Positions 3,468-18,930 of a DNA stretch of 18,930 bases are shown here, one piece after another (position 1 is the first letter of the stretch; each line of letters begins with the position of its first letter). Origin of the DNA: Myxococcota bacterium (GTDB lineage: Bacteria; Myxococcota; XYA12-FULL-58-9; JALHOP01). Location: positions 1 to 18,930 of the forward strand of contig JBGGMJ010000013.1 of NCBI GenBank assembly GCA_041288095.1, read 5' to 3'. The translations under genes were made by a program, and so were the position numbers. The notes below the pieces were generated by a model that made no database searches, had not been told where the DNA came from, and saw nothing but the letters and a program-made list of their open reading frames with translations.

Positions 3468-4742
3468 CTACGGCGCCGGCTTCAGGGGATAGCCCTTCGC
3501 CGCGAACGCGTCACGGACCTGCGCGAAGCCCTTGAGCAGGTAGCGCTCCACCTGCTCCTCGGTGTTCGCGGACGTGAGCGTGATGCGAAGCTCCTCGTGC
3601 CCGCGCGGGATCATCGGGTACGGCCCGAGCGTCAGCAGGACTCCGGCGTCGAGCAGGATCTTCGCGGCCAAGAGTAGGCGCTCGTTGTCGCCGGACCAGA
3701 CGCTGACGATGGGGAAGTAGTTGTCGTTGTCGACGTAGAATCCGAGCTCACGCAGGCCGTCGACAGCCATCTTGGTGAGGGCATAGAGCCGCCGGCGGTA
3801 GTCGTCGCCACGCGCCTCGTTCACCGCCATCGAGGTCAAGAGGCTCTGCAGCGACGCGGTCGGACACGGGCCCGACAAATCGTAGGGCGTCGCGTACGCC
3901 TTGACGAAGCTCATCGTGTTCTTGGACCCGGCGATGCCCGCGGCCATGGACGAGTACGCCTTGGAAAAGCCGGCGACGTACATGAAGTTGTCCGCCTCGT
4001 AGCGCAGACCGGCGCGGCGAACGATACCGTTGCCTCTGTATCCATAAGGCATGTCGGCGTCCGGTCGCTCACCGACCACGCCGAAGCCGTGCGCGTCGTC
4101 GATGTAGACGATGGCGTCGTACTTCTTGGCGAGCGCGGAGAGGCTTCCGAGGTCCGGATACCTGCCGGTCATCGAGAAGACGCCGTCGACCAAGATGACC
4201 TTCTTGGGGTTGGCGCGGTGCTGGTCGAGCAGAGCTTCGAGCGCGGTGAGGTCGCCGTGCGCGAAGCTGCACAGCGTGGCTCCGCTATCGCGGGCCATCT
4301 TGCACGCTTGATACATGGTCATGTGCGCGAACTTGTCGAGGAACATGACGCCGTCTTTGCCGACGAGCGCGGGAATGACACCGATCGAGACGAGCGTCAC
4401 CGTGGGCAAGATGAGGAAGGCTTCGACGCCCAGGAGCTCGGCAAGCGCCTCTTCACATTGATTGTAGAGATGCGGGCTCGCGACCAACCGGCACCAGCTC
4501 GGATGCACGCCCCAGCGTTTGAGCGCGGGCTCGATCTCTTCGATGATCTGTGGCTCGAGATCGAAGCCCAGGTAGTTGCACGAAGCGAAGTCCGCGACCC
4601 ACTGACCGTCGATGCGCAGCATGCGCCCGTCGATCTCGACCGCGGTGGCGTCGAACATGCGCGAGCGCTTGAGCACGTCCTGGATGCTCGCCCGTTGGCC
4701 GCTGACGTTCTTTTCGATGATGCGCTGGAAGATGTCGCTCAT
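3468..4742 (-). CDS. PLP-dependent alpha-oxoamine synthase (AONS/BioF-like superfamily), SxtA C-terminal-domain-like
   Basis: DFASCNYLG, DGVFSM, DDAHGFG, GFSKAYSS (PLP Lys) and LRITLTSANT. Start overlaps the stop of the adenylation gene (ATGA). Confidence 0.9.
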   Translation of the reverse strand: MSDIFQRIIEKNVSGQRASIQDVLKRSRMFDATAVEIDGRMLRIDGQWVADFASCNYLGFDLEPQIIEEIEPALKRWGVHPSWCRLVASPHLYNQCEEALAELLGVEAFLILPTVTLVSIGVIPALVGKDGVMFLDKFAHMTMYQACKMARDSGATLCSFAHGDLTALEALLDQHRANPKKVILVDGVFSMTGRYPDLGSLSALAKKYDAIVYIDDAHGFGVVGERPDADMPYGYRGNGIVRRAGLRYEADNFMYVAGFSKAYSSMAAGIAGSKNTMSFVKAYATPYDLSGPCPTASLQSLLTSMAVNEARGDDYRRRLYALTKMAVDGLRELGFYVDNDNYFPIVSVWSGDNERLLLAAKILLDAGVLLTLGPYPMIPRGHEELRITLTSANTEEQVERYLLKGFAQVRDAFAAKGYPLKPAP

Positions 4743-6292
4743 GGGACCTCGCTCGGCGGCAACTCGGCTTTGAGTCGTTGACGGTCGACCTTACCGCTCG
4801 AGGTGTAAGGAAAGCTCGCGACGATACGCAAGTCGAGCGGCACCATGTAGGCCGGGAGCTGCTGCCGCAGGAGCTCCAGAAGCTCTTCCGGGGTGGCCGA
4901 GCGGTCGTCCGCGAGGAGGACGAAGGCGTGCAGACTGCTGCCGTACTTGGGGTGCGGTCGATGAACGACCACGCACTGCCGGACTTTGTCGTCGCGGCAG
5001 AGCGCGGCCTCGACGTCACCGATCTCGACGCGATAGCCGCGCGTCTTCACCATGTCGTCGCGGCGCCCGAAGTAAGCGATGTTGCCATCGGGGAGGCGCT
5101 TGCCGATGTCACCGGTGCGCCAGAAGCGCAGCGGGAAGCGGTGGAAGCGGCTCCACACGTAGCGCTCCGCGGTGAGCTCGGGCTTTCCCAGGTAGCCGAT
5201 GCAGACGGTACCGCCGTGGCACCAGACCTCGCCGACCTCACCGACGTCGCACAGACGCGGGGGCGTTGCGTCCGTGTCGACGACGATGATGAACGTGTCG
5301 TCGACCTCACGACCGATCGGCACCGGCTCCGTCGGCGGCGTCTCGACCCAGTAGTACGTGATGATGTTGGTCTCGGTCGGCCCGTAGATGTTGCAGACCT
5401 TGGTCTTGGGCATGGCCCGCATGAAGCGCGACAGCATCTCGGGGTGAAAGGGCTCGCCGGCGTAGAGGAAGAGCCGGAGCGGAACGCCCGGGTCGAGGCC
5501 GCCCTTCTCGAGGAGCACCGTCGCCGCCGAGGGGGTCGCGTAGAGCACGGTCGCGCGCTCGCGCCGCATCGCCTCGACATAGGCGCGGTGGCGTTGCTCG
5601 GGGCTCATCCCTTCGAGCGTGCCGCGGCGCTGATCGATGACGATGAGGGTCGCGCCTCCGAGCAGCGTGGTGAAGATGTCGAAGACCGAGAAGTCGAAGT
5701 TGAGCGGCGAGCGGGCGGCGACGCGGTCATCCGGCCCTATGGCGAACTCCTTCGCCATCCACGCCACGAAGGTGATGGCGTTTCGGTGCGTGAGCATCAC
5801 GCCCTTGGGCGTTCCGGTCGATCCCGAGGTGTAGAGGACGTAGGCGAGGCCGTCGAGGATCTCCGGGCGAGTGGGGCGAGGGCGACTCGGCGCACCAGCC
5901 GCGGCTGCGTCCGGATGGATGATCCGCTGTAGCGGCTCGCCCTGGAGCTGCGCGCCATCCGGGTAGGCGACCGGATCGATGATCGCCGTGCGAAGCCCCC
6001 CGTCGGTGATGATCTGACGCAAGCGCTGCGGCGGCGCGAGTACGTCGAGCGGCACGTAGGCGCGGCCAGCGCGCAGCACGCCCAAGATGCTCACGATGGT
6101 CGCCTGTGTGACCGCGGAGCTCACCCCGACCAGATCTTCGTCGTCCGCGAGCACTCCCAAAAGGTGGTTTGCGACCCGGTTCGCCTGCGCGTCCAGCTCG
6201 GCATAGGTCATCGAGCGATCGCCCTCGATGAGCGCGACCCGGTCGGCGAAACGCGCGAACGCGGGGTCCAAGAGGGTGTGCAGCTGGAACAC
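4739..6292 (-). CDS. Standalone amino-acid adenylation enzyme (NRPS A-domain type, PltF/RedM/DltA-like), no fused PCP
   Basis: A3 YTSGSTGTPKG, A4 FDFS, A5 NIYGPTE, A7 RTGD, A8 GRRDDMVKTRGYRVE and A10 SSGKVDR. GTG start with AAGGA SD. Confidence 0.92.
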   Translation of the reverse strand: MFQLHTLLDPAFARFADRVALIEGDRSMTYAELDAQANRVANHLLGVLADDEDLVGVSSAVTQATIVSILGVLRAGRAYVPLDVLAPPQRLRQIITDGGLRTAIIDPVAYPDGAQLQGEPLQRIIHPDAAAAGAPSRPRPTRPEILDGLAYVLYTSGSTGTPKGVMLTHRNAITFVAWMAKEFAIGPDDRVAARSPLNFDFSVFDIFTTLLGGATLIVIDQRRGTLEGMSPEQRHRAYVEAMRRERATVLYATPSAATVLLEKGGLDPGVPLRLFLYAGEPFHPEMLSRFMRAMPKTKVCNIYGPTETNIITYYWVETPPTEPVPIGREVDDTFIIVVDTDATPPRLCDVGEVGEVWCHGGTVCIGYLGKPELTAERYVWSRFHRFPLRFWRTGDIGKRLPDGNIAYFGRRDDMVKTRGYRVEIGDVEAALCRDDKVRQCVVVHRPHPKYGSSLHAFVLLADDRSATPEELLELLRQQLPAYMVPLDLRIVASFPYTSSGKVDRQRLKAELPPSEVP

Positions 6293-6303
6293 GGGTTATC
6301 CTT

Positions 6304-9126
6304 TCACGTAGGCGCGATGACGAAGGCGCGACCGACTCGGGCTACCGGTCCGCCATCATGGACAACCAGAGCCGTCGACGCGAACATCCGCTGCAAGGAG
6401 CCGAGCCCATGGGCGACCGCGCGCATGCCGTCGCGGTCGCTCACGATGACCTGTTCGTCGCTCATGAGGTCGGCGACGACATCGCGACAGCCACAGACCT
6501 CGTAGTAGCGCATGCGCTCGTTCGTCGCGTCCTCGGTGAGCTGGTAGGTGCTGACGACGGCGGTCAGCTCGAGCGTCGCCAGATGGCGAATCACCTTGGC
6601 GTTCTTGGCGATGTTCCCGAAGCAATTGAAGGGGAACAACACGAGCGTCTTGTAGTCGGCCGCATGCAGGGCCTCGCGCTCGAATAGCCGATCGAGGTCA
6701 TCCGCCGAGGCGTAATGCACATGGGAGCGCAGCGGCCCACCGCCGTAGGGCTCGGCCTTGTGGACGAGGTCGCGAACGAAGTCGATGCCGTCGTAGTGAA
6801 GACCGCGCTCGTTTGCCCACTGACGATAGCGCCCCGGCCCGCTGCCGATCTCGAGCAGGTGATTCAAGCCACGCTCGCGCATCACCTGTTCGACGAACAC
6901 CATCTCGGCGGCGAGGTAGTCACCAATCGCGGGCGTGAACAGCGACGTGTCCTGCATGGCGCCGCCATAGCGGCTGAAGAAACCATGCGAGGCCGCTGGG
7001 CTCATCTCGACGCTGACCGCCGCGTCCAGGGTGTCGGGGAGGCAGGCGCTGATCTGCTCGAGCTCGGTCTCGTAGGGGCTCACGCAGGAGTAACCGTCGA
7101 GCCGCGCCAGGATCTGCGTCCCGCGACGGATGGTTCCCTCGACCACGACCGCGAAGCCCGTCTGGATCGGCACCACGAAGGTCACCTCGCCGCGGACGAC
7201 ATCGGCCTCGAAGGTCGCGAACCGATCGATGCCCGCGAAGAGCCGAGGGTTGAGAAAGAGCTCGACCGGGCCGTTGGCGGCATCGAGATAACCCGAGATC
7301 TCGAGCACCGAGCGCTGACCGCTACAGCGAACACGGTACGTCCAGCCGTCGACGGTCCGGCGCTGCAGGACGAGGTCGCTGGCCTCGCGCAGATGGCGTC
7401 CCTGACGGAGCAGCCCGCCGACACACCGCCGCGAACGCCCGACCGCCGACAACAAGATGCGGCGCAGATCACGGTGGGTGGCGTCGAGGTCGCTCGTCGT
7501 ATGCTCCTCGATGGTCGCCGAGAAGGTGTCGCGCTCGAGCGCGGTCAGCGGCTCATTCATGAAGCGGGCGCGCTGCGCGATGAGGGATGCGAGGTCCGAG
7601 CCGTCGCCGGGGCGCTGTGACCCGGCCGTCATGACCGCGGAGAGCACCGTGCTCGCGGCGCGGGCGAGCGCGCGGCTGTGCGCGCGTACCGTATGGCGCA
7701 GGCGCTCGACGTAGGTCTCCGGCAGGCCGTCGACGCGAAAGCCCAGCGCCTCGCGGGTTCGCGTGTCGAGCTCGTCGGGCGATAAGGCGTCGACGAGCAC
7801 CCAGCGCGGCAGAGCACCCAGCGCCGCGTGGATGTCCACCACCGACAGCTCGCGCGGCAGCGGCAAGAGCCAACGCTTTCCCGGGCGAATCAGGCGCGAC
7901 AGCGTCGTCCATGACTGGGCGAGCTGACGCATGGCCTCCGGGCAGCGCTCGCGAACCGCTGCAACGAAGGGCTCGGGCACGCCGAGCGCGCGCACCAGCT
8001 CGAGCGCGAAGGCATCGTCGTAGAGCCGGGGCAGCTCGTACCGCGCCCAGAGGGCGTCGTCTTGCCAGGCTGGGTCGGCCCCGGGCAGCTCCGAGATGCT
8101 CTTGAGCGAGGTGACCCACTCGAGGGTACGGGCCATGTGCTCGAGGCCGTACTGATCGACCGCGGAGCTCGTGCCGTAGATCGCCGTGTAGTCGTCGACC
8201 ATGATCGGCGCGGTGCCCGGCTGCGATGTCGTCGAGTCGAGGTCGACCGGGCCGCCGCCCACCAGGATGTTCGACGCCGCCTGGGCGCCGTGGTGCATCC
8301 GCCAGCGCGTCCACTGGGCCTGCGCGGTGGCATGGATGCCGAGGATCTCGGCCAAACGCCGGCGCCGCTCGGAGCCGCGCGCCGAGCGCTCGAGGCAATG
8401 GTCGAGCACCGCGGCGGCATCGGCTCGCGCCGCCGTCTCGGTCTCCATGAGATGTCCGAGACGCGGCTGGATCGCCGCGCGCACCATCCAGCCGTGCACG
8501 GCGTTGCCCTGAAGGCCGAGGGTCGAGGGGCGAATGAGCACGGCGAGCACGCGCGTGCCGGGGACCTCGACGAGGTTCTCGAGCACCATGCTGCACGCCA
8601 TGCGGCGGACGGCGTTCGTCACCTTGAGGCGGCCGTGATAGCCCTCGAATGTGCTGGGAGCCGCGTGGGCGAGGGGCGTCGCGCCGATGCCGGTGATGTA
8701 AAGCCCGAGCTCCGGGTCGATGACAGCGCGGCCCGCGCCCTTGTTGCCGAAGAGACCGACACCGCCATAGCGGTCAGCGAACAAGCGGCGGGTGAGGGGC
8801 GCGCTCATATCGGGTTGGACATCGAGCCCGCAGCGCTCGCGCACCCACTCGTCGATGTCGTCCGGTAGGTTCCAGCCAACCAGCTCGAACAAGGTCTCGA
8901 GGAGGTCGTGATCGACGTAGAGCACGACACAGTCGTCCGTCGGACGAGCGGCGACGGGCACGAGGTTCGCACCGATGAAGTCGAGGAGCTCGGTGCGGGC
9001 CGACGGCGTCACCCAGAGCTGCCGGGCGATCTCGAGCTGGTCGAGCCGCGTGATGCGTTCCCGATGGTCGGCGAGTCGGACTCCCCGCGCTCGCCCAGCC
9101 AGAATTTCTGGTTGCGCCGCACCCAC
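6304..9126 (-). CDS. Fusion protein: divergent SelO/YdiU/MchC-like N-terminal domain plus C-terminal class I SAM methyltransferase
   Basis: SelO-order motifs ADRYGG..GNKGAGRA, YITGIGATP, GTRVLAV, MVRA..RLGH, HHGAQAASNI..VDLD. The C-terminal ~230 aa carry LLEIGSGPG and YDGID. Exact start is uncertain. Confidence 0.7.
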   Translation of the reverse strand: MGAAQPEILAGRARGVRLADHRERITRLDQLEIARQLWVTPSARTELLDFIGANLVPVAARPTDDCVVLYVDHDLLETLFELVGWNLPDDIDEWVRERCGLDVQPDMSAPLTRRLFADRYGGVGLFGNKGAGRAVIDPELGLYITGIGATPLAHAAPSTFEGYHGRLKVTNAVRRMACSMVLENLVEVPGTRVLAVLIRPSTLGLQGNAVHGWMVRAAIQPRLGHLMETETAARADAAAVLDHCLERSARGSERRRRLAEILGIHATAQAQWTRWRMHHGAQAASNILVGGGPVDLDSTTSQPGTAPIMVDDYTAIYGTSSAVDQYGLEHMARTLEWVTSLKSISELPGADPAWQDDALWARYELPRLYDDAFALELVRALGVPEPFVAAVRERCPEAMRQLAQSWTTLSRLIRPGKRWLLPLPRELSVVDIHAALGALPRWVLVDALSPDELDTRTREALGFRVDGLPETYVERLRHTVRAHSRALARAASTVLSAVMTAGSQRPGDGSDLASLIAQRARFMNEPLTALERDTFSATIEEHTTSDLDATHRDLRRILLSAVGRSRRCVGGLLRQGRHLREASDLVLQRRTVDGWTYRVRCSGQRSVLEISGYLDAANGPVELFLNPRLFAGIDRFATFEADVVRGEVTFVVPIQTGFAVVVEGTIRRGTQILARLDGYSCVSPYETELEQISACLPDTLDAAVSVEMSPAASHGFFSRYGGAMQDTSLFTPAIGDYLAAEMVFVEQVMRERGLNHLLEIGSGPGRYRQWANERGLHYDGIDFVRDLVHKAEPYGGGPLRSHVHYASADDLDRLFEREALHAADYKTLVLFPFNCFGNIAKNAKVIRHLATLELTAVVSTYQLTEDATNERMRYYEVCGCRDVVADLMSDEQVIVSDRDGMRAVAHGLGSLQRMFASTALVVHDGGPVARVGRAFVIAPT

Positions 9127-9131
9127 GCCCT

Positions 9132-10610
9132 ATGGTGTTGCACGAAAGGATGCCGAATCCAAACGGCGAGGGAGACGCGGCGGCAGTCGCGGCCGAGCTT
9201 GCCGACTTGATCGAGAGGCAGCGGCGGACCATCGCCGCCGAACGGCTCGCGTGGGCCGGCCCCGACGCGGTGCGCGACGACCTCGCGGAGGTCGAGCAGC
9301 GCCTGGCCGCCCTGGGCGGCAGCGTTCGCCAAACCATCGAGGCGTGGCGGCTCACTCCCGCGCTGGTCTACGAGCTGAATCGAAGCGCGGGGGTCGCGAC
9401 CGCTGCCTTGCGCCACACACCGCCGCTCGCCGGGCTCCCCGAGGCGGTGCATCCGCTCCAGCAGGCCGTGCAGCCAGCCCCGTACATCATGGACTACGCG
9501 CGCAGTGGCGCACGGCTCAGCTACGTCGCCCAGGCACCGTTCATCACCGGAGTCGACCACCCGCTGCTCGCCGAAGCGGCCGAGCGAGCGCGGCGCACGA
9601 TCCACGGCGCTGGCGCGGGCAGGTCGCTCCTCTTCGGGTCAGGCATGGGGGCGATGAACACCGCCATCGACTTCATGGCGCAGACGGCGCGTGCCGCGGG
9701 ACGGCGTAACTTGCTCGGGCGTCATAGCTGGATCGAAGTGCAGGCCTACGCGCTCGAGCAGCATCCCGACACCTTCACGCTGGTCGACGAAACCGACGCC
9801 GATGCGCTCGCGAGCGCGCTCGCGGACCCAGCGGTCTTCGGGGTGATCATCGAGCCGCTCCCGAACCATCCGACGATGCCGGTGGCGGCGCTCGACGTGT
9901 GTTACAGCGCGCTCGAGAACACCGAGCGCATGCTCCTCCTCGACGCGGCCCACACACCCGAGGTCGCGCCACGCGTCATCCCGGGCGTCATCACGCTGTC
10001 GGTAGTGAGCGGCGTGAAGTTCCTCCAGGCGGGTCTCGACCTCGGCAAGTCCGGCCTGCTCACGTTTTGGGGCGATGACCGTGGCGCCTTCGCGCGCATC
10101 CTCGAGCTGCGCGAGCGCTCCGGACGGGTGCCGTCGTTCACGGAAGCCCGCCTCGCCTGCCTCGACGATCACGCGAGCTTCCAGGCACGCCTCGCCCGCT
10201 ACGACCGCAACATGCGGGCCTGGGCCGCGCACCTCGACGCGGGGCTTCGCGGCAGTGACCTCACGGTCGTCTCGCCGTGGCTCGAAGATCATCCCCACCA
10301 CGCAAGGAGCGCGACCATCGGCGGCGGTCGCTTTGTCTACCTCGGCCATCGGTCGGGCACGTCGCTGCTCGGTGTCGACAGGTGGCTATGCACCGAGGCG
10401 GCTGCTCGCGACCTGCCGGGGGTCGCGGCGTGCACCTTCGGGCTCAACGTCCCGCACGCCAACATCATCGTCGGCGCTGACGGCACGACGTTCCTTCGCC
10501 TGTCATCCGGCAGCGATAGCAGCGCTTCCAGCGACCGCGTCGTGGCGCTTTGGTCGGAGCTCCTCGCGGAACGCTTCAGACCTGCGACGAAACGATCTGC
10601 ACGCCGCTGA
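9132..10610 (+). CDS. PLP-dependent Cys/Met-metabolism (cystathionine gamma-lyase/synthase fold) enzyme with long N-terminal extension
   Basis: DYAR (YxR), FGSGMGAM, IIEPLPNHP, LLDAAH, SGVKFLQAG (PLP Lys) and FLRLSSG. Alternative start ATG 9150. Confidence 0.8.
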   Translation: MVLHERMPNPNGEGDAAAVAAELADLIERQRRTIAAERLAWAGPDAVRDDLAEVEQRLAALGGSVRQTIEAWRLTPALVYELNRSAGVATAALRHTPPLAGLPEAVHPLQQAVQPAPYIMDYARSGARLSYVAQAPFITGVDHPLLAEAAERARRTIHGAGAGRSLLFGSGMGAMNTAIDFMAQTARAAGRRNLLGRHSWIEVQAYALEQHPDTFTLVDETDADALASALADPAVFGVIIEPLPNHPTMPVAALDVCYSALENTERMLLLDAAHTPEVAPRVIPGVITLSVVSGVKFLQAGLDLGKSGLLTFWGDDRGAFARILELRERSGRVPSFTEARLACLDDHASFQARLARYDRNMRAWAAHLDAGLRGSDLTVVSPWLEDHPHHARSATIGGGRFVYLGHRSGTSLLGVDRWLCTEAAARDLPGVAACTFGLNVPHANIIVGADGTTFLRLSSGSDSSASSDRVVALWSELLAERFRPATKRSARR

Positions 10611-11226
10611 CGGTGTCCGCGAAAAAGGACGCGCCGAGCCCTTGCGCATGGCTCAGGATCTTTTCGATCTCCGCCGGCACCGCGGGCATCTGCCGGTACA
10701 TGTTCCAGTACTGCGCCACCTGAACGTTACGAATACCCGCGTACTGCAGCGACGAGACCGCCTCCGCGGCGTAGCTCGCGACGTTTCCAAAACGGTAGGC
10801 GGTCTGCAGGTTGCTGCCGAGCGTCTGGATGACCAAGGCGCGGTGATGCCGCAGGAGCCCGCCCTGGTAGGTCGTTCCGGTCGCGTCCGAGGCGAACGAG
10901 AACCCGGGGATCAGGAACACCCGGTCGAGGTAGCCCTTCAAGATCGCCGGCAGCCCGAAGTTCCAGGCCGGGAAGATCCACGCGAGGCAGGTCGCCCACT
11001 GGATGTGCTCCTGCTCGACCTTGCAGTCCTCGGGCACAGCCCCGGAGAAGCCGCTGCGCCACTCTTCTTCGGAGAGCACGGGGTTGAACCCGACACGGTA
11101 CAGATCGCGCTCGCGCACTTCGGCTTGGGCGCCGATCCCGGCGATGAAGCGCCGGGTGATCTCGGCGTTCAAGCTCTCCTTGCTCGGGTGGGCGGTCACG
11201 ATCAGAAGTCGTTGCGCGCTCGTCAT
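10576..11226 (-). CDS. NAD(P)H-dependent oxidoreductase, flavodoxin-like fold (quinone reductase KefF/MdaB type)
   Basis: TAHPSKESLN, RDLY..FNP and FPAWNFGLPAILKGYLDRVF. Start set at ATG 11226, which has an AGAGGA SD and overlaps the upstream stop (ATGA). Confidence 0.9.
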   Translation of the reverse strand: MTSAQRLLIVTAHPSKESLNAEITRRFIAGIGAQAEVRERDLYRVGFNPVLSEEEWRSGFSGAVPEDCKVEQEHIQWATCLAWIFPAWNFGLPAILKGYLDRVFLIPGFSFASDATGTTYQGGLLRHHRALVIQTLGSNLQTAYRFGNVASYAAEAVSSLQYAGIRNVQVAQYWNMYRQMPAVPAEIEKILSHAQGLGASFFADTVSGVQIVSSQV

Positions 11227-12035
11227 GGCGTCCTCTTGCGCAGCGCGATGACCTGCACCGCATCGTCCCAGCCGAGCGTGTGATCGGCGTAGCCGCCGAA
11301 AAATCCGCAGATCGACAACGGCGACTGCTGGGTGAGGAGCGTCAGCTCTCTCGGGAAGTAGACGCGCTCCGCCGATTTGATCTCGCGCACGGTTTCGCTT
11401 TCCCCGGTTTGGTTGGTGATGCGAATCACGGTGTCGACGCGACCGGTGAGCAGATCGAAGCGCGGCGCGTTGACGCCCCATTCCGCGCGGACCCGCCGTC
11501 CGGGGTGGCTCGGCGCGGTGCCGCCGTAGATGACCCCGTAGTCGATGTAGCCGACATCCTTCGGATGGTTTGCCTCGATGACCAGCAGGCTCTGGTCGTG
11601 CATCGAGCGCGACGCGCCGGCGAGAAACGCGTGCACGGCCGCATCATCCGGGAAATACGCCATGCTATCGAGCGGCAAGAGCACGAGGTCGTACGGCCCG
11701 CGTGGCGACAGATTGCACGGGTGCTCGCGAGCAAACTCGACCGGCGCTGGGGCGACAAGGGAGCGTGCGAAGCTCAAGAAGTCCTCACGCGTGTCGATGG
11801 CGGTACAGCTGAGCCCGCGGAGCGCGAGGGCGCGCGCGTAATACGCCGGGCCGCACTGCACCTCGAGGGCGCTTTGCGCTTTCCGGCCCATGAGCCGCTC
11901 GAAGAGGCCGAGCAGGAAGTCGACGTCGGCCGAGACATCGCGGAAGAAGGCCAGATGCAGCTCGAGAGGGCTCTCGAAGACCGCCGAATAGGCGAAAGGT
12001 TCCGGCGACGGGGAGGCAAGAGCGGGATTCTTCAT
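11223..12035 (-). CDS. Class I SAM-dependent methyltransferase (~270 aa)
   Basis: DVDFL..LF, motif I variant ALEVQCGPA, TAID, YDLVLLPLDS, LLVIE..HP and C-terminal R.YFPREL..L. ATG 12035 preferred because the track extension to 12239 overlaps the divergent gene at 12131. Confidence 0.85.
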   Translation of the reverse strand: MKNPALASPSPEPFAYSAVFESPLELHLAFFRDVSADVDFLLGLFERLMGRKAQSALEVQCGPAYYARALALRGLSCTAIDTREDFLSFARSLVAPAPVEFAREHPCNLSPRGPYDLVLLPLDSMAYFPDDAAVHAFLAGASRSMHDQSLLVIEANHPKDVGYIDYGVIYGGTAPSHPGRRVRAEWGVNAPRFDLLTGRVDTVIRITNQTGESETVREIKSAERVYFPRELTLLTQQSPLSICGFFGGYADHTLGWDDAVQVIALRKRTP

Positions 12036-12130
12036 GTCGCTGGCCAGGCGCGACGATAGCAGTGTATGTCGGGCCGAGGTAGATACAACCGTCACCTCCG
12101 CAAGCGCGGTCACCGGAAGGCGAGCCCGGC

Positions 12131-12583
12131 ATGGGTCAGTCGCACGAGTCGTTCTCAGAGAAGCAAGTACTCGCCGTGTTTCGTCGAACCGACGCGAACG
12201 GCAACTTCCTTTACTCCGACGCGCAAGCAACGGCAGCAACCGTTTTCTGCACGCTGACCTTGGTGCACCACGGGCACTTCACCATGGAGACCCTGCCACC
12301 GGCGCTCGCGGAAATCTGCGCCCGGTACATCAAGGACAAGAAGATCCAGGCCGGCGATCCGGCGAAGGTCCGCGCCGACATGGTGGCGCACTTCGATCGT
12401 GACATTCCCCTCGCCATGATGCGCGAGCTCAATGAAGCGATCACGACGATCGCTCGCGAAGGAGGCGCCGAAGCCGCCGAGGCCTTGGCGCGTGCCGCGC
12501 GCACGAACAGCAATCGACTAACAGGCGGCGGCCCGTTGCCCCCGAAGGGTGGCAAGGGTGGGGTCGGACCGCGCAACAACTAA
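12131..12583 (+). CDS. Hypothetical protein (150 aa) with Gly/Pro/Lys-rich C-terminal tail
   Basis: Clean ORF with GC-rich third codon positions that fills the gap between genes. No family recognised. Confidence 0.7.
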   Translation: MGQSHESFSEKQVLAVFRRTDANGNFLYSDAQATAATVFCTLTLVHHGHFTMETLPPALAEICARYIKDKKIQAGDPAKVRADMVAHFDRDIPLAMMRELNEAITTIAREGGAEAAEALARAARTNSNRLTGGGPLPPKGGKGGVGPRNN

Positions 12584-12645
12584 CCGACGGGCCATCTGGC
12601 CAACTTAATGAATTGATACGCGGCATATGCCCGCTGGAGGACATC

Positions 12646-12954
12646 ATGGGTATCGAGAACAGAGCGCCGACGACGCTCTCGGCTAGCCAACCGGTATGGA
12701 ACATGGAGACTGGCGCGAGCGCGGCTCGCGGCGGTCAGGCCACCCTCGGCCAAGTACTCAGCGCCTTCAGCGATCCGCAGTTCAGCGGCATCGCGAGCCG
12801 GAGCCCCGATCTCGCTGCGTCCGTTCGCGCACTCCAGACCGATGGGGCGACCATCCCCGAGTTGCACGATTTCGATCGTCAGGTGCACGCCGTCCCCGGC
12901 GCCTTGCAGGGCTTCGAGCGCGCTCTTGAGCGCGTCGCGCCCCACCTGCGCTAG
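12646..12954 (+). CDS. Small hypothetical protein (102 aa), paralog 1
   Basis: GGAGG SD before ATG 12646. Aligns along its whole length with 13161-13451, starting with the identical MGIENR. Confidence 0.85.
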   Translation: MGIENRAPTTLSASQPVWNMETGASAARGGQATLGQVLSAFSDPQFSGIASRSPDLAASVRALQTDGATIPELHDFDRQVHAVPGALQGFERALERVAPHLR

Positions 12955-12974
12955 AAAAATCACTCGCCTTTCCG

Positions 12975-12996
12975 CGGGGGTGTTTGCGCACCCCCG
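12975..12996. other. Stem-loop CGGGGGTG-TTTGCG-CACCCCCG downstream of paralog 1 (possible terminator or mRNA-stabilising hairpin)
   Basis: Perfect 8-bp GC-rich stem 20 nt after the stop. No adjacent U-tract, so not a canonical intrinsic terminator. Confidence 0.4.
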
Positions 12997-13160
12997 TACG
13001 GCGGGCCACACGGGCCTGAAGGCCTTGCCCCGCCCGCGCGTCGACCGCGTACGCATTCGAAGCCCTGTCGCTCCGACAGACCCAGAAGGCGCACCCTCCA
13101 GCCGGTGTCTCCGATAACCTGACCAACGATTAGCGCTCTCGGAGCGATAAGGGATTCGTC

Positions 13161-13451
13161 ATGGGTATCGAAAACAGACCATCTGGCACACTTGGATTGA
13201 ACGACACCGCTTGGCACATGGAGACCAGCCGCGGCCAGGCCACGCTGCAGAACGTCCTCCAGGCCTTCTCCGACCCCGGCTTCCGCGGCTTCGCGCAAAC
13301 ACCGGCCATCAGCCCCTCGGTCCGCGCGCTGCAGAGCAATGGCGCGACGCGAGGCGAGCTCCTCGACTTCGACGCCGCGGTGCACAGCGTGCCCGGTGCT
13401 CTGAATGCTTTCGAGAGCGCGCTGATCCGCGTCGCTCCGCACCTCGGCTAA
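13161..13451 (+). CDS. Small hypothetical protein (96 aa), paralog 2
   Basis: About 60% identical to 12646-12954 by hand alignment. AAGGGA SD-like sequence upstream. Confidence 0.85.
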   Translation: MGIENRPSGTLGLNDTAWHMETSRGQATLQNVLQAFSDPGFRGFAQTPAISPSVRALQSNGATRGELLDFDAAVHSVPGALNAFESALIRVAPHLG

Positions 13452-13480: not shown

Positions 13481-14320
13481 TCAGGTGGGCTTCTGCCACC
13501 ACGCGCTGTGCCCCTGCATGTGCACGTCGGCCGTAATGGAGTGCTTGGCGCGGAACGCATCGATGGCGGCGCGCGCTCCCCAATAGGCGCCGTGCCCGTA
13601 GTCGTTCAGCAAGACGCGTCCCCCAGCGCTGAGCTTGGGGTAGAGCGCTTCGAGCACTGTCCGCGTCGAGTGCTCGTACTGGCAATCGACCCGGAGTAGC
13701 GCGAGCGCCTCGATGGGCGCGGTCGGCAGGGTGTCTTCGAACCAGCCGACGAGCAGCTTCACGTGGTCGCCGTACGCGCCCAACCGCTCGAAGCTCGCGA
13801 CGACCTCGTCGACGTTGGTCGCGAAAGCGCCGGTCCACGACAAGACCGCCCAGCTCGCGATCTCGGCTGGTGCATCCCGGTCGGGATCCGGCGGGGGCAG
13901 GCCGCGGAACGAGTCCGCCGCCCACAGACGGCGCCGCGGCGCGAGCTCTCCGAGCAACGCCGAGAGCAAGATCGAAATGCCGCCGCGAAACACGCCGGCC
14001 TCGCAGAAGTCGCCAGGCACACCCGCCGCGATCACATAGCGTGCATGGCCTTCGACATCGTCGAGGAACTCGCGTCCCAGCACCGTGAGAGCGCGGCCGC
14101 GATTGCCTTCGGCGGCGTAGTAAAGCTCGTCGAGCGGCGTCGACGTGAGGTCGTCGACGATCGCCTGCCACTTGCCGCGTGCCTCGAGCCGCGGACGCAG
14201 CGCCTCGAGGGTGGTGTAGAGGTGCTGGCGAAACGCCTCGATCTGCTCGGCTGTCGGCGTCTCGACAGCGCGATGACGAACCAGCTCGGCCTTGAGCTCT
14301 TCGATGCGTGGGCTTGCCAT
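13481..14320 (-). CDS. TylF/MycF/NovP-family O-methyltransferase-like protein with altered acidic active-site motifs
   Basis: VPGDFCEAGVFRGG, ADSFRGLP, GWFEDTLP, LYPKLSAGG and AIDAFR. ATG 14320 preferred because the track start at 14389 collides with the divergent gene. Confidence 0.88.
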   Translation of the reverse strand: MASPRIEELKAELVRHRAVETPTAEQIEAFRQHLYTTLEALRPRLEARGKWQAIVDDLTSTPLDELYYAAEGNRGRALTVLGREFLDDVEGHARYVIAAGVPGDFCEAGVFRGGISILLSALLGELAPRRRLWAADSFRGLPPPDPDRDAPAEIASWAVLSWTGAFATNVDEVVASFERLGAYGDHVKLLVGWFEDTLPTAPIEALALLRVDCQYEHSTRTVLEALYPKLSAGGRVLLNDYGHGAYWGARAAIDAFRAKHSITADVHMQGHSAWWQKPT

Positions 14321-14387
14321 GAACTTTTGACATACACCCGACCGGCCGCCTCGCGGTATGGTCTTCGCCGTCCAGGAGCCTCCTCCC

Positions 14388-17300
14388 ATGCAACTGTTCC
14401 GCGCCGTACGGGCTGGCCTCGTTGGTTGTCTCCTTGTGTCCGCTTTCGCGGGCTGTCACTCGGGTGAGTCGCTCGAGGTCACGCATGCCTCGCCGACCGG
14501 CGACCTGCGCGGCCTGCCGACGTACTTCGAAGTGCACTTCAATCGGCCGATCGTCGATCCAGACGCCGCCGAGGCCAAGGCGCAAGGGCTCGACATCGAC
14601 ATCACGCCGAGCCTCGCGGGCAAGGTGAGCTTCCCGACGCCGAACTCGATGGCGTTCGCCTTCACGGACCCGGTGCCGCCGGCGACCAAGGTGGAGGTCG
14701 AGATCGACAGCGGCCTGCGGACCTTCGACGGCAAGGCGGTGCTCAAGAGCAGCTACTCATTCGCCTTCACCAGCGAGAAGAACGGCGGCGCCGAGCTCGA
14801 GAAGGTGGCTCACACCAAGGAAGAGTGGGAGGCCGCCAAGGCGGACGGGGCGGCGCCACGGCAGATGGTCAGCGACGGCGAGTCGCAAGTGTCACTGCTC
14901 GGCCTTTACGACGACCTTGTGCTGACGCTGCGCTATCCGGAGAAGGTCGCGACCTTGAAGTCGCTCGTCACCGTGCAAGGCGAGCCGCAGGGGGGTGGCG
15001 GCGCCAAGACCTTGCCGGTCACGCTGACGTTCCCCGCTGGTGACACCGCGGACCGCGTGCTGATCACGCCGAGCTCGCCGTGGCCCGAGCATACCAATCT
15101 CAAGGTCAACCTCGCCAAGGGCCTGGGTGTCGCGCTCACGGGAGCCGGGAAGGTGACCAGCGAGGCGCAGACTCTCCAGGCCGCTACTTATCCGTCGCTC
15201 TCCATCGTCAGCGGGCCGACGTGCGATCTGTGCGTGCCGCCGTCGACCTTGGCCATCGAGTTTTCGACCCCGGTCGACTGCCAGCAAGCGCTGGCGAAGA
15301 TCGCCATCGTGCCGGCGATCGAGTCGTTCAACTGCTCGGGCCAAGCGAACGGCAGCCGCATCGTGCGCATCGAGCCGACGCCGGCGCTCAAGGCGCACAC
15401 CGAGTACACGCTCACCGTTGGTGGCGGCATCGTCGACACCTTCGGCCAAGCACTGGCGCAACCAAAGACGTTCACGCTCAAGACGGGCGACGCCGAACCG
15501 CGCTTTGCGCATCAGACGATGTTCAACGTCCTCGAGCGGGCCGAGAAGCCGGCGCACGAGGAGATGGTCTGGAAGACCACGAAGCTCAACGTCGAAGGCG
15601 CACGCCTGCCGTTCCGTGAGGCGTGGAAGATCATCGCCGCGCAAGATCTCGCCGACCAGGTCGCGTGGGAGGAGCTGCCGTGGTGGCTCTCCGAGAGCTA
15701 CTACGCCTACTACGAGTCGGATTGTTACTGGGACGAGGAAGCGGGCACCGAGATCTGCAACGAGAGCTCGCAGCGCTTTCCCGGCGCGACCGACGACACC
15801 GAGATCAAGATCCCGAACGCGGTGGCGAACAGCATCAGCGTCCCGCAGGGTGAAAACTGGGCGACGGTCACGGTGCCGCTCGAGCCCTACTTGAAGGGCG
15901 CCGGCGGCATCGTCGTCCTCAAGAACACACCGCTCGATCAGAAGGGCGTGCGCGTCAGCAACCCGGTGCTGCGCTTGCTCAACGTCACCGACATCGGCTT
16001 GTCGGCGAAGTACTCGACGCAGCAGCTCGTCGTCATGGCGGCCAAGCTCTCCGACGGCAAGCCCATCGTCAACGCCGAGATCGACATCTACATCGTCGAC
16101 GAGAAGGCGAAAGATCTAGGGGAGCCCGCGGCCCATGCCAAGACCGACGCCCAGGGCATCGCGGTGATTCGCGCGGCCGAGGTCGCGCGCAACGGAGGCG
16201 TCCCGAACCTGCAATCGAAGGGTGTCTTCGTGACCGCGAAAGCGGGCGACGACGAGGCGTTCGTCTGGTCGAAGTTCAAGAACGGCGGCAGCAGCGCACC
16301 GAAGAGCGGGGCGCGGCTCGTCGGCAGCGTCTACACCGAGCGCGGCATCTATCGGCCGGGCGAGACCGTCTACTATCGCGTCGTGGCGCGGCGTCAGTCA
16401 CCCGACGGCTTCACCACTCCCAGCGGCGCCGTGACCGCTTCGGCGGTCTTCGCGGAAGACATGTACGACGACGAGGGCGGCGCACAGGATGCGCTCTTCG
16501 TCAGCGATCAGACGTTCTCGAAGTTCGGCACCATCAGCGGCAGCTTCGTCGTGCCCGCCGATGCCCGCGTCGGCGAGTATCAGATCCGCGCCAAGGTCGG
16601 CGACGACATGTTGCACGAGAGCTTCCGCGTCGGTGAGTTCCGTAGAGCCGAGATGAAGGTCACGGTCGCGACCGACAAGCCGCAATACATGCGCGGGGCC
16701 AAGATGCATGCGCGCGTCAATGCCGACTACCTCTTCGGCGCTCCCGCCGCCGGCCTCACCACGCACTGGACGTTGCGCCGCCAGAGCTCGAGCTTCGACA
16801 GCAAGCGCTATCCGCAGGCCGAGTTCAGCGACTACGACTACCACAGCTGGTACGACGAGCGGTCGGACTACGCCGAGTTCCTCGACGAGGGCGACGCTAC
16901 CCTCGACGATACCGGCAGCTTCACCTTCGACCGCGTGCTCAAGGACGCATCGAGCAACGCCCGCCTCGAGAAGCTCATCGTGTCCGCTACCGTGGACGAC
17001 GCCAGCGGCCAGAGCGTGAGCTCGGCGACCACCGTCGATGTGCACCCCGCGAGCTTCTATGTCGGCATCGACCCCAAGGGGTACCTGCGCGAGAAGGGTA
17101 AGCTCTTCACCTACGACATCGTCGTCGTCTCGACCACCGACCAACCGCTCGGCGGCGTCGAAGTCACCGTGAACGGTGAGCAAGAGCGCTGGTACTCGGT
17201 GAAGCGCAAGGGCCCCGGCGGCCTCATGTACTGGGACTACCAGCACGAGAGCAAGAAGATGCCGGCCGTGTGCTCCGGTAAAACGGACGCCAACGGCGTG

Positions 17301-18930
17301 CTCGCCTGCCAGTACACGGCAGAGCACGGCGGCTCGCTGCGCCTGCGCGTCTCCGCCAAGGACGAAAAGAAGCGCGAGGTCCGCGCCTCGTCGTGGTTCT
17401 GGGTCACGGGTGACCCCGACTACTATTCGGGCCGCAGTGACGGCGGGAACCAGGTGTCGATCATGCCGGAAAAGCCAGAGCTCGAAGCCGGCGAGACCGC
17501 CCGCATCGCCATCGCTTCACCGTTCAAGGAGTCGATGGCGATGATCACCGTCGAGCGCGAGGACATCCTCTGGCGCAAGGTGATGCCGCTCGGCACCAAC
17601 GGTGTCGTCGACATCCCGATCCCGCCGGAGTGGGCGCCGAACGTCTGGATCTCGGCGACGGTGGTGCGCGGCCGCGTCAAGCCCGAGGGCGGCCTGTCGC
17701 CGGACCCGGAGCGTGACAAGCCGGCCTACGCGCTGGGCTACGCCAAGGTCGCGGTGAAGCCGACGCGCAACGTGCTCAAGGTGCAGCTCGCCTCCGACAA
17801 GCCGTTCTACGAGCCGGGTGAGCAAGTCGCGGTGACCGTCAACACCGCTGACCACCAAAGCAAGGGCACGTCCGCTGAAGTGAACTTGTACGCCGTCGAC
17901 GAAGGCGTGCTCATGCTCACCGCCTACCGGACGCCGGATATCGTCAAGGACCTGTTCCAAGAGCGCATGTATTCGGTGCTCTCCCTCGATACGCGCATGC
18001 ACGTGCTCGGACGCCGCAAGTTCATCCAGCCGACGCCGAAGGGCGAGGAAGACGGCGGTGGTGGCGGCGGCGACAACGACAACGAGCTGCGCAAGGATTT
18101 CAATCCGGTCGCGACCTGGATCGGTAGCCTCGTCACCGACGGTAGCGGCAAGGCGACGCATAGCTTCAAGGTCCCCGACACGCTCACGACCTACCGAGTC
18201 ATGGCGGTCGCGGTCACCGAGGGGACTCAGTTCGGCTCCGCTTCAGCGGAGTTCAAGGTCAACAAGACGCTCATGATGCGTCAGGCGATGCCGCGTTTCG
18301 CGCGGCCGGGTGACCGGATCGACGCAGGCGTGGTGGTCAACCACATGCTCCCCGAGGGAGCGCCGGTGACGGTCGCCATCGAGTCCATCGACGACAAGCT
18401 CTTCAACGTGAAGAGCGAAAAGACGCTGACGCGGACGGTGAAGGGAAAGGCCACCGAGCCGTTCCGCTTCAACATCGCCGCCAAGGACGTCGAAGGCGCG
18501 AGCGAGATCATCTTCAAGGCCACGATGGAGGTGAACGGCAAGAAGTTCGCCGACCGCGTCCAGCTCACGCTCCCCGTGAAGCGGGTGCAGCCGTCCGAGA
18601 CCGTCGGCATCGCGGGTGTCCTCGATAGCGGCACGGTGCAGCACACGCTGACGCTGCCGGAAGGCGCGCGCCCGACCAAGTTCGAGCTCAACATGAGTGG
18701 TCTGCCGGTGGCCTCGCTCGAGGAACGCATGCGTGGATTGGTCGGCTATCCCTACGGCTGTCTCGAGCAGCGCACGAGCAAGGTGATGCCGCTCATCGCG
18801 GTCCGCGAGCTCTCCGAGAAGCTCGGCTTCGCCTCGATCCCGAGCGAGAAGATCAAGGGTTGGGTCGAGGAGTGGGTGAAGATCGTTCCCAAGTACAAGT
18901 GCGGCGACAACGGCTTCGACTACTACCCGG
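14388..18930 (+). CDS. Bacterial alpha-2-macroglobulin family lipoprotein (3' end beyond the window, >1500 aa)
   Basis: AGGAG SD, then MQLFRAVRAGLVGCLLVSAFAG-C lipobox. Same-frame motifs: YTERGIYRPGETV (~16332), AVDEGVL, ELRKDF (~18084), PDTLTTYRV, PRFARPGD and thioester YPYGCLEQ (CLEQ 18759-18770). Confidence 0.95.
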   Translation, partial: MQLFRAVRAGLVGCLLVSAFAGCHSGESLEVTHASPTGDLRGLPTYFEVHFNRPIVDPDAAEAKAQGLDIDITPSLAGKVSFPTPNSMAFAFTDPVPPATKVEVEIDSGLRTFDGKAVLKSSYSFAFTSEKNGGAELEKVAHTKEEWEAAKADGAAPRQMVSDGESQVSLLGLYDDLVLTLRYPEKVATLKSLVTVQGEPQGGGGAKTLPVTLTFPAGDTADRVLITPSSPWPEHTNLKVNLAKGLGVALTGAGKVTSEAQTLQAATYPSLSIVSGPTCDLCVPPSTLAIEFSTPVDCQQALAKIAIVPAIESFNCSGQANGSRIVRIEPTPALKAHTEYTLTVGGGIVDTFGQALAQPKTFTLKTGDAEPRFAHQTMFNVLERAEKPAHEEMVWKTTKLNVEGARLPFREAWKIIAAQDLADQVAWEELPWWLSESYYAYYESDCYWDEEAGTEICNESSQRFPGATDDTEIKIPNAVANSISVPQGENWATVTVPLEPYLKGAGGIVVLKNTPLDQKGVRVSNPVLRLLNVTDIGLSAKYSTQQLVVMAAKLSDGKPIVNAEIDIYIVDEKAKDLGEPAAHAKTDAQGIAVIRAAEVARNGGVPNLQSKGVFVTAKAGDDEAFVWSKFKNGGSSAPKSGARLVGSVYTERGIYRPGETVYYRVVARRQSPDGFTTPSGAVTASAVFAEDMYDDEGGAQDALFVSDQTFSKFGTISGSFVVPADARVGEYQIRAKVGDDMLHESFRVGEFRRAEMKVTVATDKPQYMRGAKMHARVNADYLFGAPAAGLTTHWTLRRQSSSFDSKRYPQAEFSDYDYHSWYDERSDYAEFLDEGDATLDDTGSFTFDRVLKDASSNARLEKLIVSATVDDASGQSVSSATTVDVHPASFYVGIDPKGYLREKGKLFTYDIVVVSTTDQPLGGVEVTVNGEQERWYSVKRKGPGGLMYWDYQHESKKMPAVCSGKTDANGVLACQYTAEHGGSLRLRVSAKDEKKREVRASSWFWVTGDPDYYSGRSDGGNQVSIMPEKPELEAGETARIAIASPFKESMAMITVEREDILWRKVMPLGTNGVVDIPIPPEWAPNVWISATVVRGRVKPEGGLSPDPERDKPAYALGYAKVAVKPTRNVLKVQLASDKPFYEPGEQVAVTVNTADHQSKGTSAEVNLYAVDEGVLMLTAYRTPDIVKDLFQERMYSVLSLDTRMHVLGRRKFIQPTPKGEEDGGGGGGDNDNELRKDFNPVATWIGSLVTDGSGKATHSFKVPDTLTTYRVMAVAVTEGTQFGSASAEFKVNKTLMMRQAMPRFARPGDRIDAGVVVNHMLPEGAPVTVAIESIDDKLFNVKSEKTLTRTVKGKATEPFRFNIAAKDVEGASEIIFKATMEVNGKKFADRVQLTLPVKRVQPSETVGIAGVLDSGTVQHTLTLPEGARPTKFELNMSGLPVASLEERMRGLVGYPYGCLEQRTSKVMPLIAVRELSEKLGFASIPSEKIKGWVEEWVKIVPKYKCGDNGFDYYP

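Follow-up and report, generated by a model that had tools for sequence, protein, structure and literature searches.

The stretch of Myxococcota DNA considered here, 18,930 nucleotides that form positions 1 to 18,930 of contig JBGGMJ010000013.1 (assembly GCA_041288095.1) and are referred to below as the window, contains an open reading frame (ORF) in which a long MchC-like protein of the SelO kinase-fold superfamily is joined to a domain carrying the published signatures of azetidine-2-carboxylate (AZE) synthases. The ORF and its parts are listed here, with residue numbers that refer to its translation, the fusion protein.

6304..9126, minus strand (9126->6304): fusion ORF, 940 codons and 940 aa, GTG start at 9126
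8137..9006, minus strand: SelO/MchC-like kinase-fold core, residues ~41-330; key residues R133, T145 (Lys position), R175 (Glu position), R216, R222, H279-G280, S285, N286 and D295
7402..8136, minus strand: helical region, residues ~331-575, matching the SelO/YdiU C-terminal helical domain by VIA structural alignment and by the secondary structure of an AlphaFold2 (AF2) model
7039..7401, minus strand: beta-rich domain at the C-terminal end of long-family proteins, followed by a last helix, residues ~576-696
6985..7038, minus strand: linker, residues ~697-714, with low predicted local distance difference test (pLDDT) values in the full-length AF2 model
6304..6984, minus strand: predicted AzeJ/VioH-type S-adenosylmethionine (SAM) cyclase (AZE synthase) domain, residues 715-940; key residues F716-F717 (FY motif), GSGPG 761-765, D779/D782, P832-FNCFGN-838 and R871-xxYYxxC-878

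The GTG at 9126 is the sole start codon 5' of residue 39, and the alignments of relatives begin at about residue 23. All of the SelO motifs and substitutions quoted in an earlier model-made interpretation of the letters (the sequence-only reading) are present in the translation: ADRYGGVGLFGNKGAGR at residues 117-133, YITGIG at 143-148 (8683-8700), in which T145 replaces the Lys of the family, HG at 164-165, VRR at 173-175, HGAQAASN at 279-286 and VDLD at 294-297. A profile of 30 relatives aligns these with the GDGR, LKGAGLTP, DGRAVLRSTIRE, HGVMNTDN and LDY motifs of YdiU/SelO, so that the positions are homologous and not chance look-alikes; a 60-sequence alignment also aligns them with YdiU/SelO. 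Neither Pfam nor NCBIfam gives a match to the N-terminal part at E<=1, and as this includes PF02696 (SelO), the fusion protein lies below the gathering cut-off of that model (22.8 bits). Searched against PDB sequences, the 30-member profile finds four YdiU/SelO sequence groups, with E values from 7.3e-8 (6k20) to 8.1e-6 (6eac), and the next match is at 8e-3.

The SelO fold proposed from the letters is borne out by modelling. An AF2 model of residues 1-700, built from the family alignment, has a pLDDT of 87.0 and a predicted TM-score (pTM) of 0.90; Foldseek ranks 1-9 are all SelO/YdiU (E 1.5e-10 to 1.5e-9), followed by a match at 2e-3. VIA gives Z scores of 30.6, 30.5 and 30.4 against SelO/YdiU, with 429-434 of ~477 residues aligned (root-mean-square deviation, rmsd, 4.3 for the 429/477 alignment) and model residues 41-567 matched to chain residues 3-455; the next best are AcsD and SbnC, synthetases of siderophores made independently of non-ribosomal peptide synthetases (NIS synthetases; Z 12-13.1), and then protein kinases (~10). 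The beta-rich domain beyond the helical region (~120 residues) has no counterpart in SelO/YdiU or in the 516-aa MchC; its strands (577-682) reach a pLDDT of ~90 in the N-terminal model, the family alignments show it to be conserved, and the family motif GY.F..P closes it. A HMMER search of 1.84 billion representative proteins yielded 130 homologues at E<=1e-3 and 39 at <=1e-10, most of them stand-alone proteins of ~700 aa that align over residues ~40-690. Pfam scanning of 34 homologues showed PF02696 to be touched by four, with only P0053 (34.3 bits) over the cut-off. The N-terminal 700 residues are thus shown to belong to the SelO kinase-fold superfamily, as a long member of MchC-like type.

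Within that superfamily, MchC, a microcin H47 maturation protein, has been described as a distant SelO subfamily (Dudkiewicz et al., PMC3281104). The MchC used for comparison is the 516-aa protein encoded between mchB and the HlyC-like acyltransferase gene of E. coli CFT073. By hhalign, the family profile matches this protein with a probability of 99.4, an E value of 2.3e-21 and a score of 166.6, as against 97.7, 1.6e-12 and 101.2 for a canonical SelO of the same phylum, a comparison of one MchC with one SelO sequence. The MchC motifs are AERYGGSG, KGIG, HSNG, EALWGEV, RPAH and SPSN...MDF, and the family shares with it A[DE]RYGG, KG.G, HS.G, EA.WGEV, RPAH and a Ser for the Asp of SelO NTDN. 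These likenesses support placing the long family nearer to the MchC branch than to canonical SelO, and the MchC/MceJ-like start noted in the sequence-only reading agrees with this. Two distant family members carry other fusions, P0067 (1076 aa) to an ATP-grasp L-amino-acid-ligase module and P0092 (1107 aa) to DUF7790 and a zeta-toxin/AAA-type kinase domain, which hints that the family is often coupled to amino acid or nucleotide chemistry. Another member, L021 (G348:C4:145706-147882), lies in two overlapping ORFs that cover profile positions 13-374 and 362-730, probably a frameshift or pseudogene. PF02696 found nothing at E<=0.001 in the window's own genome (90% complete), so that no canonical SelO is detectable there, and the fusion gene was not found in the three genomes of the same genus that were searched.

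The C-terminal domain had been taken for an ordinary methyltransferase, and here the earlier interpretation needs correction. Pfam gives only weak matches to Methyltransf_23 and Methyltransf_25 (E 0.046 and 0.084), while phmmer against PDB sequences aligns residues 720-935 with VioH (8ryg; E 5e-17) and also finds AzeJ (8ryd; 5.6e-7) and, between the two, 29st, an entry described just as a 'methyltransferase family protein' (1.4e-9). Structural comparison agrees: with the C-terminal domain of the full-length AF2 model, Foldseek places VioH 8ryg first (E 1.4e-9, TMt 0.80, rmsd 3.3, 28% identity), followed by three AzeJ entries at 3e-9 to 8e-9, and the best ordinary methyltransferase is at 3.3e-5. 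AzeJ and VioH cyclize SAM to AZE and methylthioadenosine, and the motifs FY, PFNxxGN and RxxYYxxC separate AZE synthases from other class I methyltransferases (Klaubert et al., PMC11794875); the signature residues in AzeJ are Phe134 and Asn139 of PFNxxGN, Arg172, Tyr175 and Tyr176 of RxxYYxxC, and the gating Tyr18 of FY. In the fusion protein PFNxxGN (P832-FNCFGN-838) and RxxYYxxC (R871-MRYYEVC-878) are intact, and GSGPG and a conserved YDGxD are present. The three signatures are conserved in the fusion protein and in five homologues from related clusters, the exception being F716-F717 of the fusion protein, where the five homologues have FY. As judged from these signatures, the C-terminal 225 residues are shown to be an AzeJ/VioH-family enzyme, and we consider it likely that its product is AZE. 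That the domain instead makes no AZE, being a true methyltransferase or a SAM lyase that yields 1-aminocyclopropane-1-carboxylate or homoserine lactone, is very improbable: the weak methyltransferase matches, the 28% identity to VioH and the Phe in place of the gating Tyr would allow it, but VioH and AzeJ lead by sequence and by structure, four orders of magnitude ahead of any methyltransferase, two signatures are intact, and the AzeJ Y18F mutant retains ~60% of its activity (PMC11794875).

The fusion ORF is the first gene of a three-gene operon, with the gene for a stand-alone adenylation (A) domain 11 bp downstream; the A-domain gene (6292->4739) and that for an alpha-oxoamine synthase (AONS; 4742->3468) overlap by 4 bp. 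The accompanying genes of the cluster are as follows.

4739..6292, minus strand: stand-alone A domain, 517 aa, no carrier domain (Pfam AMP-binding 3e-70; TIGR01733 359 bits, cut-off 317)
3468..4742, minus strand: BioF/Kbl-family AONS-like pyridoxal phosphate (PLP) enzyme, 424 aa
9132..10610, plus strand: divergent Cys/Met-metabolism PLP enzyme (cystathionine gamma-synthase/beta-lyase-like; CGS-like), 492 aa
10576..11481, minus strand: flavodoxin-like-fold NAD(P)H oxidoreductase (Pfam Flavodoxin_2 1.5e-32; homology from residue ~63-90 of the listed ORF)
11223..12239, minus strand: class I SAM methyltransferase (Pfam Methyltransf_25; homology from residue ~75 of the listed ORF)

The 492-aa PLP enzyme has no Pfam, NCBIfam or PDB sequence match; its assignment comes from Atlas, with feature scores of 0.97-0.98 and structure TM values of 0.6-0.75 to PF01053 clusters. 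The same gene set is present in five other Myxococcota genomes or contigs, in which the AzeJ-like and SelO-like proteins are encoded separately, so that the two functions are shown to be specified by separate genes of the same cluster in other members of the phylum. By tblastn, orthologues in these five clusters are 52-59% (A domain), 67-75% (AONS), 41-44% (CGS-like PLP enzyme), 47-56% (methyltransferase) and 46-54% (flavodoxin-like) identical to those of the window. Two layouts occur. The first, in the Myxococcaceae metagenome-assembled genome contig JBGALX010000005.1 (L003 = L049 = G330) and the metagenome contig L051 (which encodes P0005), runs flavodoxin-like(-), methyltransferase(-), AzeJ-like(+), A domain(+), AONS(+), SelO-like(+), CGS-like PLP(-), with identities to the window of 52, 56, 32, 59, 75, 28 and 44% respectively. 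The second, in G233, G235 and G320, comprises genes for the AzeJ-like enzyme, A domain, AONS, a GNAT-family acetyltransferase, CGS-like PLP enzyme, methyltransferase and flavodoxin-like protein; in G233 and G235 a VIT/VWA gene lies between the cluster and a long, more canonical SelO-like gene ~3 kb on, and in G320 the SelO-like gene is on a separate 4.3-kb contig. An FR47-like GNAT gene adjoins the CGS-like PLP gene in split clusters (L049:13303-13956, L062:416-1210) and is lacking in the window; its product may detoxify AZE, like enzymes noted in PMC11794875. An AzeJ domain is matched at E<=1e-5 in seven of 401 genomes of the phylum, and strongly (<=1e-27) in five (G000, G233, G235, G320 and G330); all five also have a long SelO-like match (E<=1e-24), which is found in 19 of the 401 overall, although four of the five belong to one family and are not independent. 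Clustering of the neighbourhoods of 16 family loci and the window revealed no partner gene conserved across the family.

On the minus strand the fusion gene starts with the GTG at 9126, and on the plus strand the divergent PLP-like gene starts with the ATG at 9132 or with Met at 9150; the two are head-to-head with 5-23 bp between their starts, so each promoter must sit within the other gene; the SelO-like and PLP-like genes are not head-to-head in the split clusters. ORFs 12131-12583 (150 aa) and 13161-13451 (96 aa), which have no Pfam match, and a TylF-type O-methyltransferase gene (13481-14389) fall outside the conserved cluster and have no counterpart in the L051 cluster by tblastx; they may be lineage-specific additions or no genes at all. 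The suggestion that the small ORFs within 12131-13451 encode substrates of the fusion protein finds no support, as they are not conserved in the related clusters. The ORF at 14358-18929 (>1524 aa, open at the window end) looks by eye like a bacterial alpha-2-macroglobulin-type protein with a lipoprotein-like N-terminus.

The fusion itself is genuine, because an independent contig with one amino acid difference crosses the junction and because gene order differs between the window and the split clusters. The protein encoded by that contig, P0002 (873 aa, on another contig of 6090 bp and cut at the contig end), includes the junction and differs only by D642E. Among Logan contigs, a 728-base contig of run X1 spans 6748-7475 without indels and carries the P0002 difference; X1 may be the source sample of P0002, so the two together count once as independent evidence for the junction. 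In run X3 of another study both halves are represented by pieces that are 95-98% identical, run X5 covers 7141-7472, and no junction-spanning Logan contig was found in X2 or X3. The sequence-only reading had held that a fusion by assembly error or a lost stop would be indicated if homologues were always two separate genes. The two parts are indeed separate genes in all five related clusters, the observation that speaks for such an artefact; even so, an assembly chimera or a stop codon lost in one assembly is scarcely credible, given the junction-spanning contig, the absence of indels or joints among the contigs mapped on the ORF and the close relative in X3 with pieces of both halves. Loss of a stop codon between neighbouring genes cannot have made the fusion either, since the split clusters have the order AzeJ-A-AONS-SelO-like and the window has SelO-like.AzeJ-A-AONS. 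The fusion is also unique among the sequences searched, as its rarity in the earlier interpretation had implied: an AzeJ-alignment hidden Markov model (E<=1) finds the C-terminal domain in none of the 129 other representative homologues, and word-index searches returned no other fused protein, the N-terminal part retrieving itself only and the C-terminal part, among long proteins, P0002 only. A further word-index search with the C-terminal part, among shorter proteins, returned nothing but the protein itself and missed even VioH-like proteins, so that it carries no information on stand-alone relatives. The loss of the Lys and the Glu is shared across a six-member clade, described next.

In the SelO of P. 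syringae the gamma-phosphate of a flipped ATP is held by Lys113 (stabilized by Glu136), Arg176 and Arg183, and the Mg2+ ligands are Asn253 and Asp262 (PMC8097203). The equivalents in the fusion protein are, in the same order, T145, R175, R216, R222, N286 and D295; the Lys-Glu pair is therefore not kept, while the gamma-phosphate arginines and the Asn and Asp metal ligands are. None of the 60 aligned sequences differs at the positions of R133, R216, R222, N286 and D295. The Lys, the Glu and the NTDN Asp are all kept in 11 canonical SelO sequences and in three long relatives (G233, G235 and G320). In the 40 members of the main family, Lys is universal and Glu is replaced in only four (by Ile, Val or Asp), and at the position that precedes the metal-binding Asn, where SelO has Asp, all 46 long-family sequences of the MchC-like type have Ser, Gly or Ala, and MchC has Ser. 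Loss of both Lys (to Thr or His) and Glu (to Arg or Thr) is confined to six of the 60, the window, P0003, P0004, P0005, L003 and L051, which form a single clade (SH-aLRT 100) in which every member of known genomic context sits in the AZE cluster described above. The alignment and tree show the Lys/Glu-less state to be a clade character tied to this cluster. The pocket would seem to have been remodelled rather than to be decaying, because the window keeps as many of the columns conserved in the main family (47 of 65) as do its clade mates (50, 44 and 49). Changes common to the clade are found at W70Y, K145, H162, E175, R304G and E523.

The long SelO-like proteins of G235 (L062:8184-10538), G233 (L060:9622-11871) and G320 (L064) have the full canonical SelO residue set and a GDGRA loop, and those of G235 and G233 score above the Pfam SelO cut-off. 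All three have the 700-aa architecture of the long family, at whose base they branch, and could represent an ancestral, still AMPylase-like state.

We propose that the product of the ORF is truly bifunctional and serves a small, conserved azetidine pathway, in which the MchC-like domain activates or ligates AZE in a nucleotide-dependent manner. The anatomy of the protein and its membership of the cluster we regard as highly probable; the proposal as a whole is more tentative, and we hold it at slightly less than even confidence, with a carboxylate-activating role for the N-terminal domain, taken by itself, a little more doubtful again. The C-terminal domain would cyclize SAM to AZE and methylthioadenosine. 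The N-terminal domain would bind a Mg-nucleotide in the flipped, SelO-like manner, as suggested by the retention of R216, R222, N286 and D295 in every member of the clade, and R175 (His in relatives), which occupies the position of the Glu partner of the lost Lys, may replace that Lys. Like MchC/MceJ, the domain would then activate a carboxylate for ligation rather than AMPylate a protein hydroxyl, a preference with which the family-wide loss of the NTDN Asp is consistent. The likeliest carboxylate would be that of AZE produced by the fused synthase domain, or of the intermediate that follows; the A domain and AONS of the operon might then build an azetidine-bearing amino ketone, which the methyltransferase, the flavodoxin-like reductase and the CGS-like PLP enzyme would tailor. 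AZE is toxic in that it is mistaken for proline (PMC11794875), and the fusion could limit leakage of this free proline mimic, with which the missing GNAT gene of the window would fit.

Several observations weigh against this proposal. The Lys/Glu pair is a classical requirement for nucleotide binding in kinase folds, and its loss is a textbook mark of a pseudo-enzyme. The window branch measures 2.32 substitutions per column, compared with a median of 0.45. The fused parts are the least conserved of the cluster genes, at 28% and 32% to their G330 orthologues as against 44-75% for the other five, which could mean relaxed constraint; faster evolution once the genes had fused, or their exchange for a distant copy, could likewise account for the divergence from L003. 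Carboxylate activation is already provided for by the A domain of the cluster, no partner CoA ligase came to light, and tblastx revealed no carrier protein or other small conserved gene common to the window and L051. The full-length AF2 model has a pTM of 0.69, pLDDT values below 50 at residues 626-709 and no confident docking of the domains. Of the 15 full-length family members in other genomes of the phylum, only that of G330 has the cluster nearby; 13 have none of its genes within ~10 kb, so that the chemistry of the family is not generally tied to AZE, and L046 has one weak AONS-like match (26% identity) ~7 kb away. As for the MchC-type precedent, MceIJ is reportedly ATP-dependent; two reviews contain no statement on ATP use by MceIJ, and a review calls the precise function of MceI/MceJ unknown.

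Some of these observations would be expected if the N-terminal domain were a non-catalytic pseudo-enzyme, a scaffold or allosteric partner that activates, gates or stabilizes the AZE synthase, or the A domain and AONS. The loss of the Lys (T145) and Glu (R175), the very long branch of the window and the low identity of both fused parts relative to the rest of the cluster are all in keeping with such a role. So is the position of the linker, which leads directly into the segment of the AZE synthase domain that bears the gating motif, FF(Y): in AzeJ the FY segment closes over SAM as a gate, and VioH reportedly has little activity by itself and needs a partner enzyme (PMC11794875). MchC proteins have, moreover, been proposed to be accessories or regulators of partner acyltransferases (Dudkiewicz et al., PMC3281104). 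We nevertheless think a catalytically dead domain unlikely, albeit the leading alternative, in view of the retention of N286, D295, R133, R216, R222 and H279 in all four Lys-less lineages at ~30% overall identity, of the family-conserved columns that the window keeps just as its clade mates do, and of the changes shared by the clade, which look concerted rather than random.

The N-terminal domain could alternatively be a SelO/YdiU-like protein AMPylase or nucleoside monophosphate transferase that serves self-protection or regulation, for example by modifying prolyl-tRNA synthetase or a pathway enzyme during production of the toxic AZE. We judge this improbable in the light of the lost Lys/Glu pair, the Ser in place of the SelO NTDN Asp and the closer relationship of the family to MchC than to SelO, and a biosynthetic enzyme encoded first in an operon is more usually fused to the enzyme of a consecutive step than to an immunity protein. 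The SelO fold is nonetheless in its favour; detoxification and resistance genes are frequent in AZE clusters (PMC11794875), the window is without the GNAT gene of the split clusters and so could need other protection, and the G233, G235 and G320 relatives keep the canonical SelO residues, two of them (G233 and G235) passing the Pfam SelO cut-off. A further variant, also improbable though marginally less so, is that the domain is a small-molecule nucleotidyl transferase that places AMP or another nucleotide moiety on AZE or the AZE-derived amino ketone, the product being an aminoacyl-nucleotide-type proline antimetabolite such as an inhibitor of prolyl-tRNA synthetase. If this were so, the domain would be the first AMP transferase of kinase fold known to use a metabolite as acceptor, fused to the producer of its substrate, and would provide a function for the whole long MchC-like family.

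Each domain is of a known superfamily, but the literature and libraries searched contain neither the long MchC-like family nor its clade without Lys and Glu, its membership of an AZE cluster or the fusion. AZE synthases were structurally characterized only in 2025, and the accompanying survey noted clusters of unknown product with stand-alone A domains (PMC11794875); the main text and three supplementary files of that paper make no mention of a long MchC-like component of the SelO superfamily. Nor did literature searches yield any paper connecting SelO/MchC-like proteins to AZE synthases or to this cluster. The locus described here thus defines one type of AZE cluster with a stand-alone A domain gene by gene, and points to an undescribed azetidine-containing metabolite in soil Myxococcota, with an undescribed step in its making. 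The fusion provides Rosetta-stone evidence that the SelO-like protein and the AZE synthase work together. It also offers a tractable handle on the chemistry of MchC-type SelO relatives, and on whether a kinase fold without the Lys/Glu pair still performs nucleotide chemistry.

The fusion protein can be compared with several known systems. It resembles SelO/YdiU (PDB 6eac, 6k20, 6lna and 9jym) in a fold that extends over ~430 residues and includes the C-terminal helical domain, and has in common with these proteins the Gly-rich GxGR loop, the gamma-phosphate arginines, the HG motif and the Asn/Asp metal ligands; it differs in being only 13-18% identical, in the replacement of Lys113 by Thr, Glu136 by Arg and the NTDN Asp by Ser, and in its fusion to an AZE synthase. 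MchC/MceJ, which act in the maturation of siderophore-microcins, are by profile comparison the characterized branch closest to the long family, and they too belong to secondary-metabolite maturation and join a carboxylate to a partner molecule, according to reviews. MchC keeps the Lys and the Glu, is 516 aa long and lacks the beta-rich domain, differing from the fusion protein in all three respects, and it works with an HlyC-like acyltransferase on a ribosomal peptide; Pfam finds no such acyltransferase (MchD/MceI), microcin precursor or ATP-binding cassette (ABC) exporter among the 12 ORFs of the window that were scanned, and the GNAT of the split clusters belongs to another, FR47-like, family.

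AzeJ of P. aeruginosa and VioH of Cystobacter violaceus (PDB 8ryd-8ryg) share GxxxG, the ribose-binding Asp, PFNxxGN and RxxYYxxC with the fusion protein, but are single-domain proteins, whereas the AZE synthase here is the C-terminus of a 940-aa protein and has FF for FY. Stand-alone A domains lie nearby in the published AZE cluster types II and IV (PMC11794875), as they do here, and no non-ribosomal peptide synthetase or radical-SAM partner was found in the window. The split clusters differ from the window in having separate AzeJ-like and SelO-like genes and a GNAT gene, and, in G233, G235 and G320, a SelO-like protein with the canonical Lys, Glu and Asp. The NIS siderophore synthetases AcsD and SbnC bear a distant fold resemblance to the fusion protein (7-8% identity, VIA Z 12-13.1), which beyond the fold is no sign of shared ancestry. 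In these enzymes adenylation of a small-molecule carboxylate is followed by amide or ester formation, which makes them a precedent for the proposed chemistry in mechanism only.

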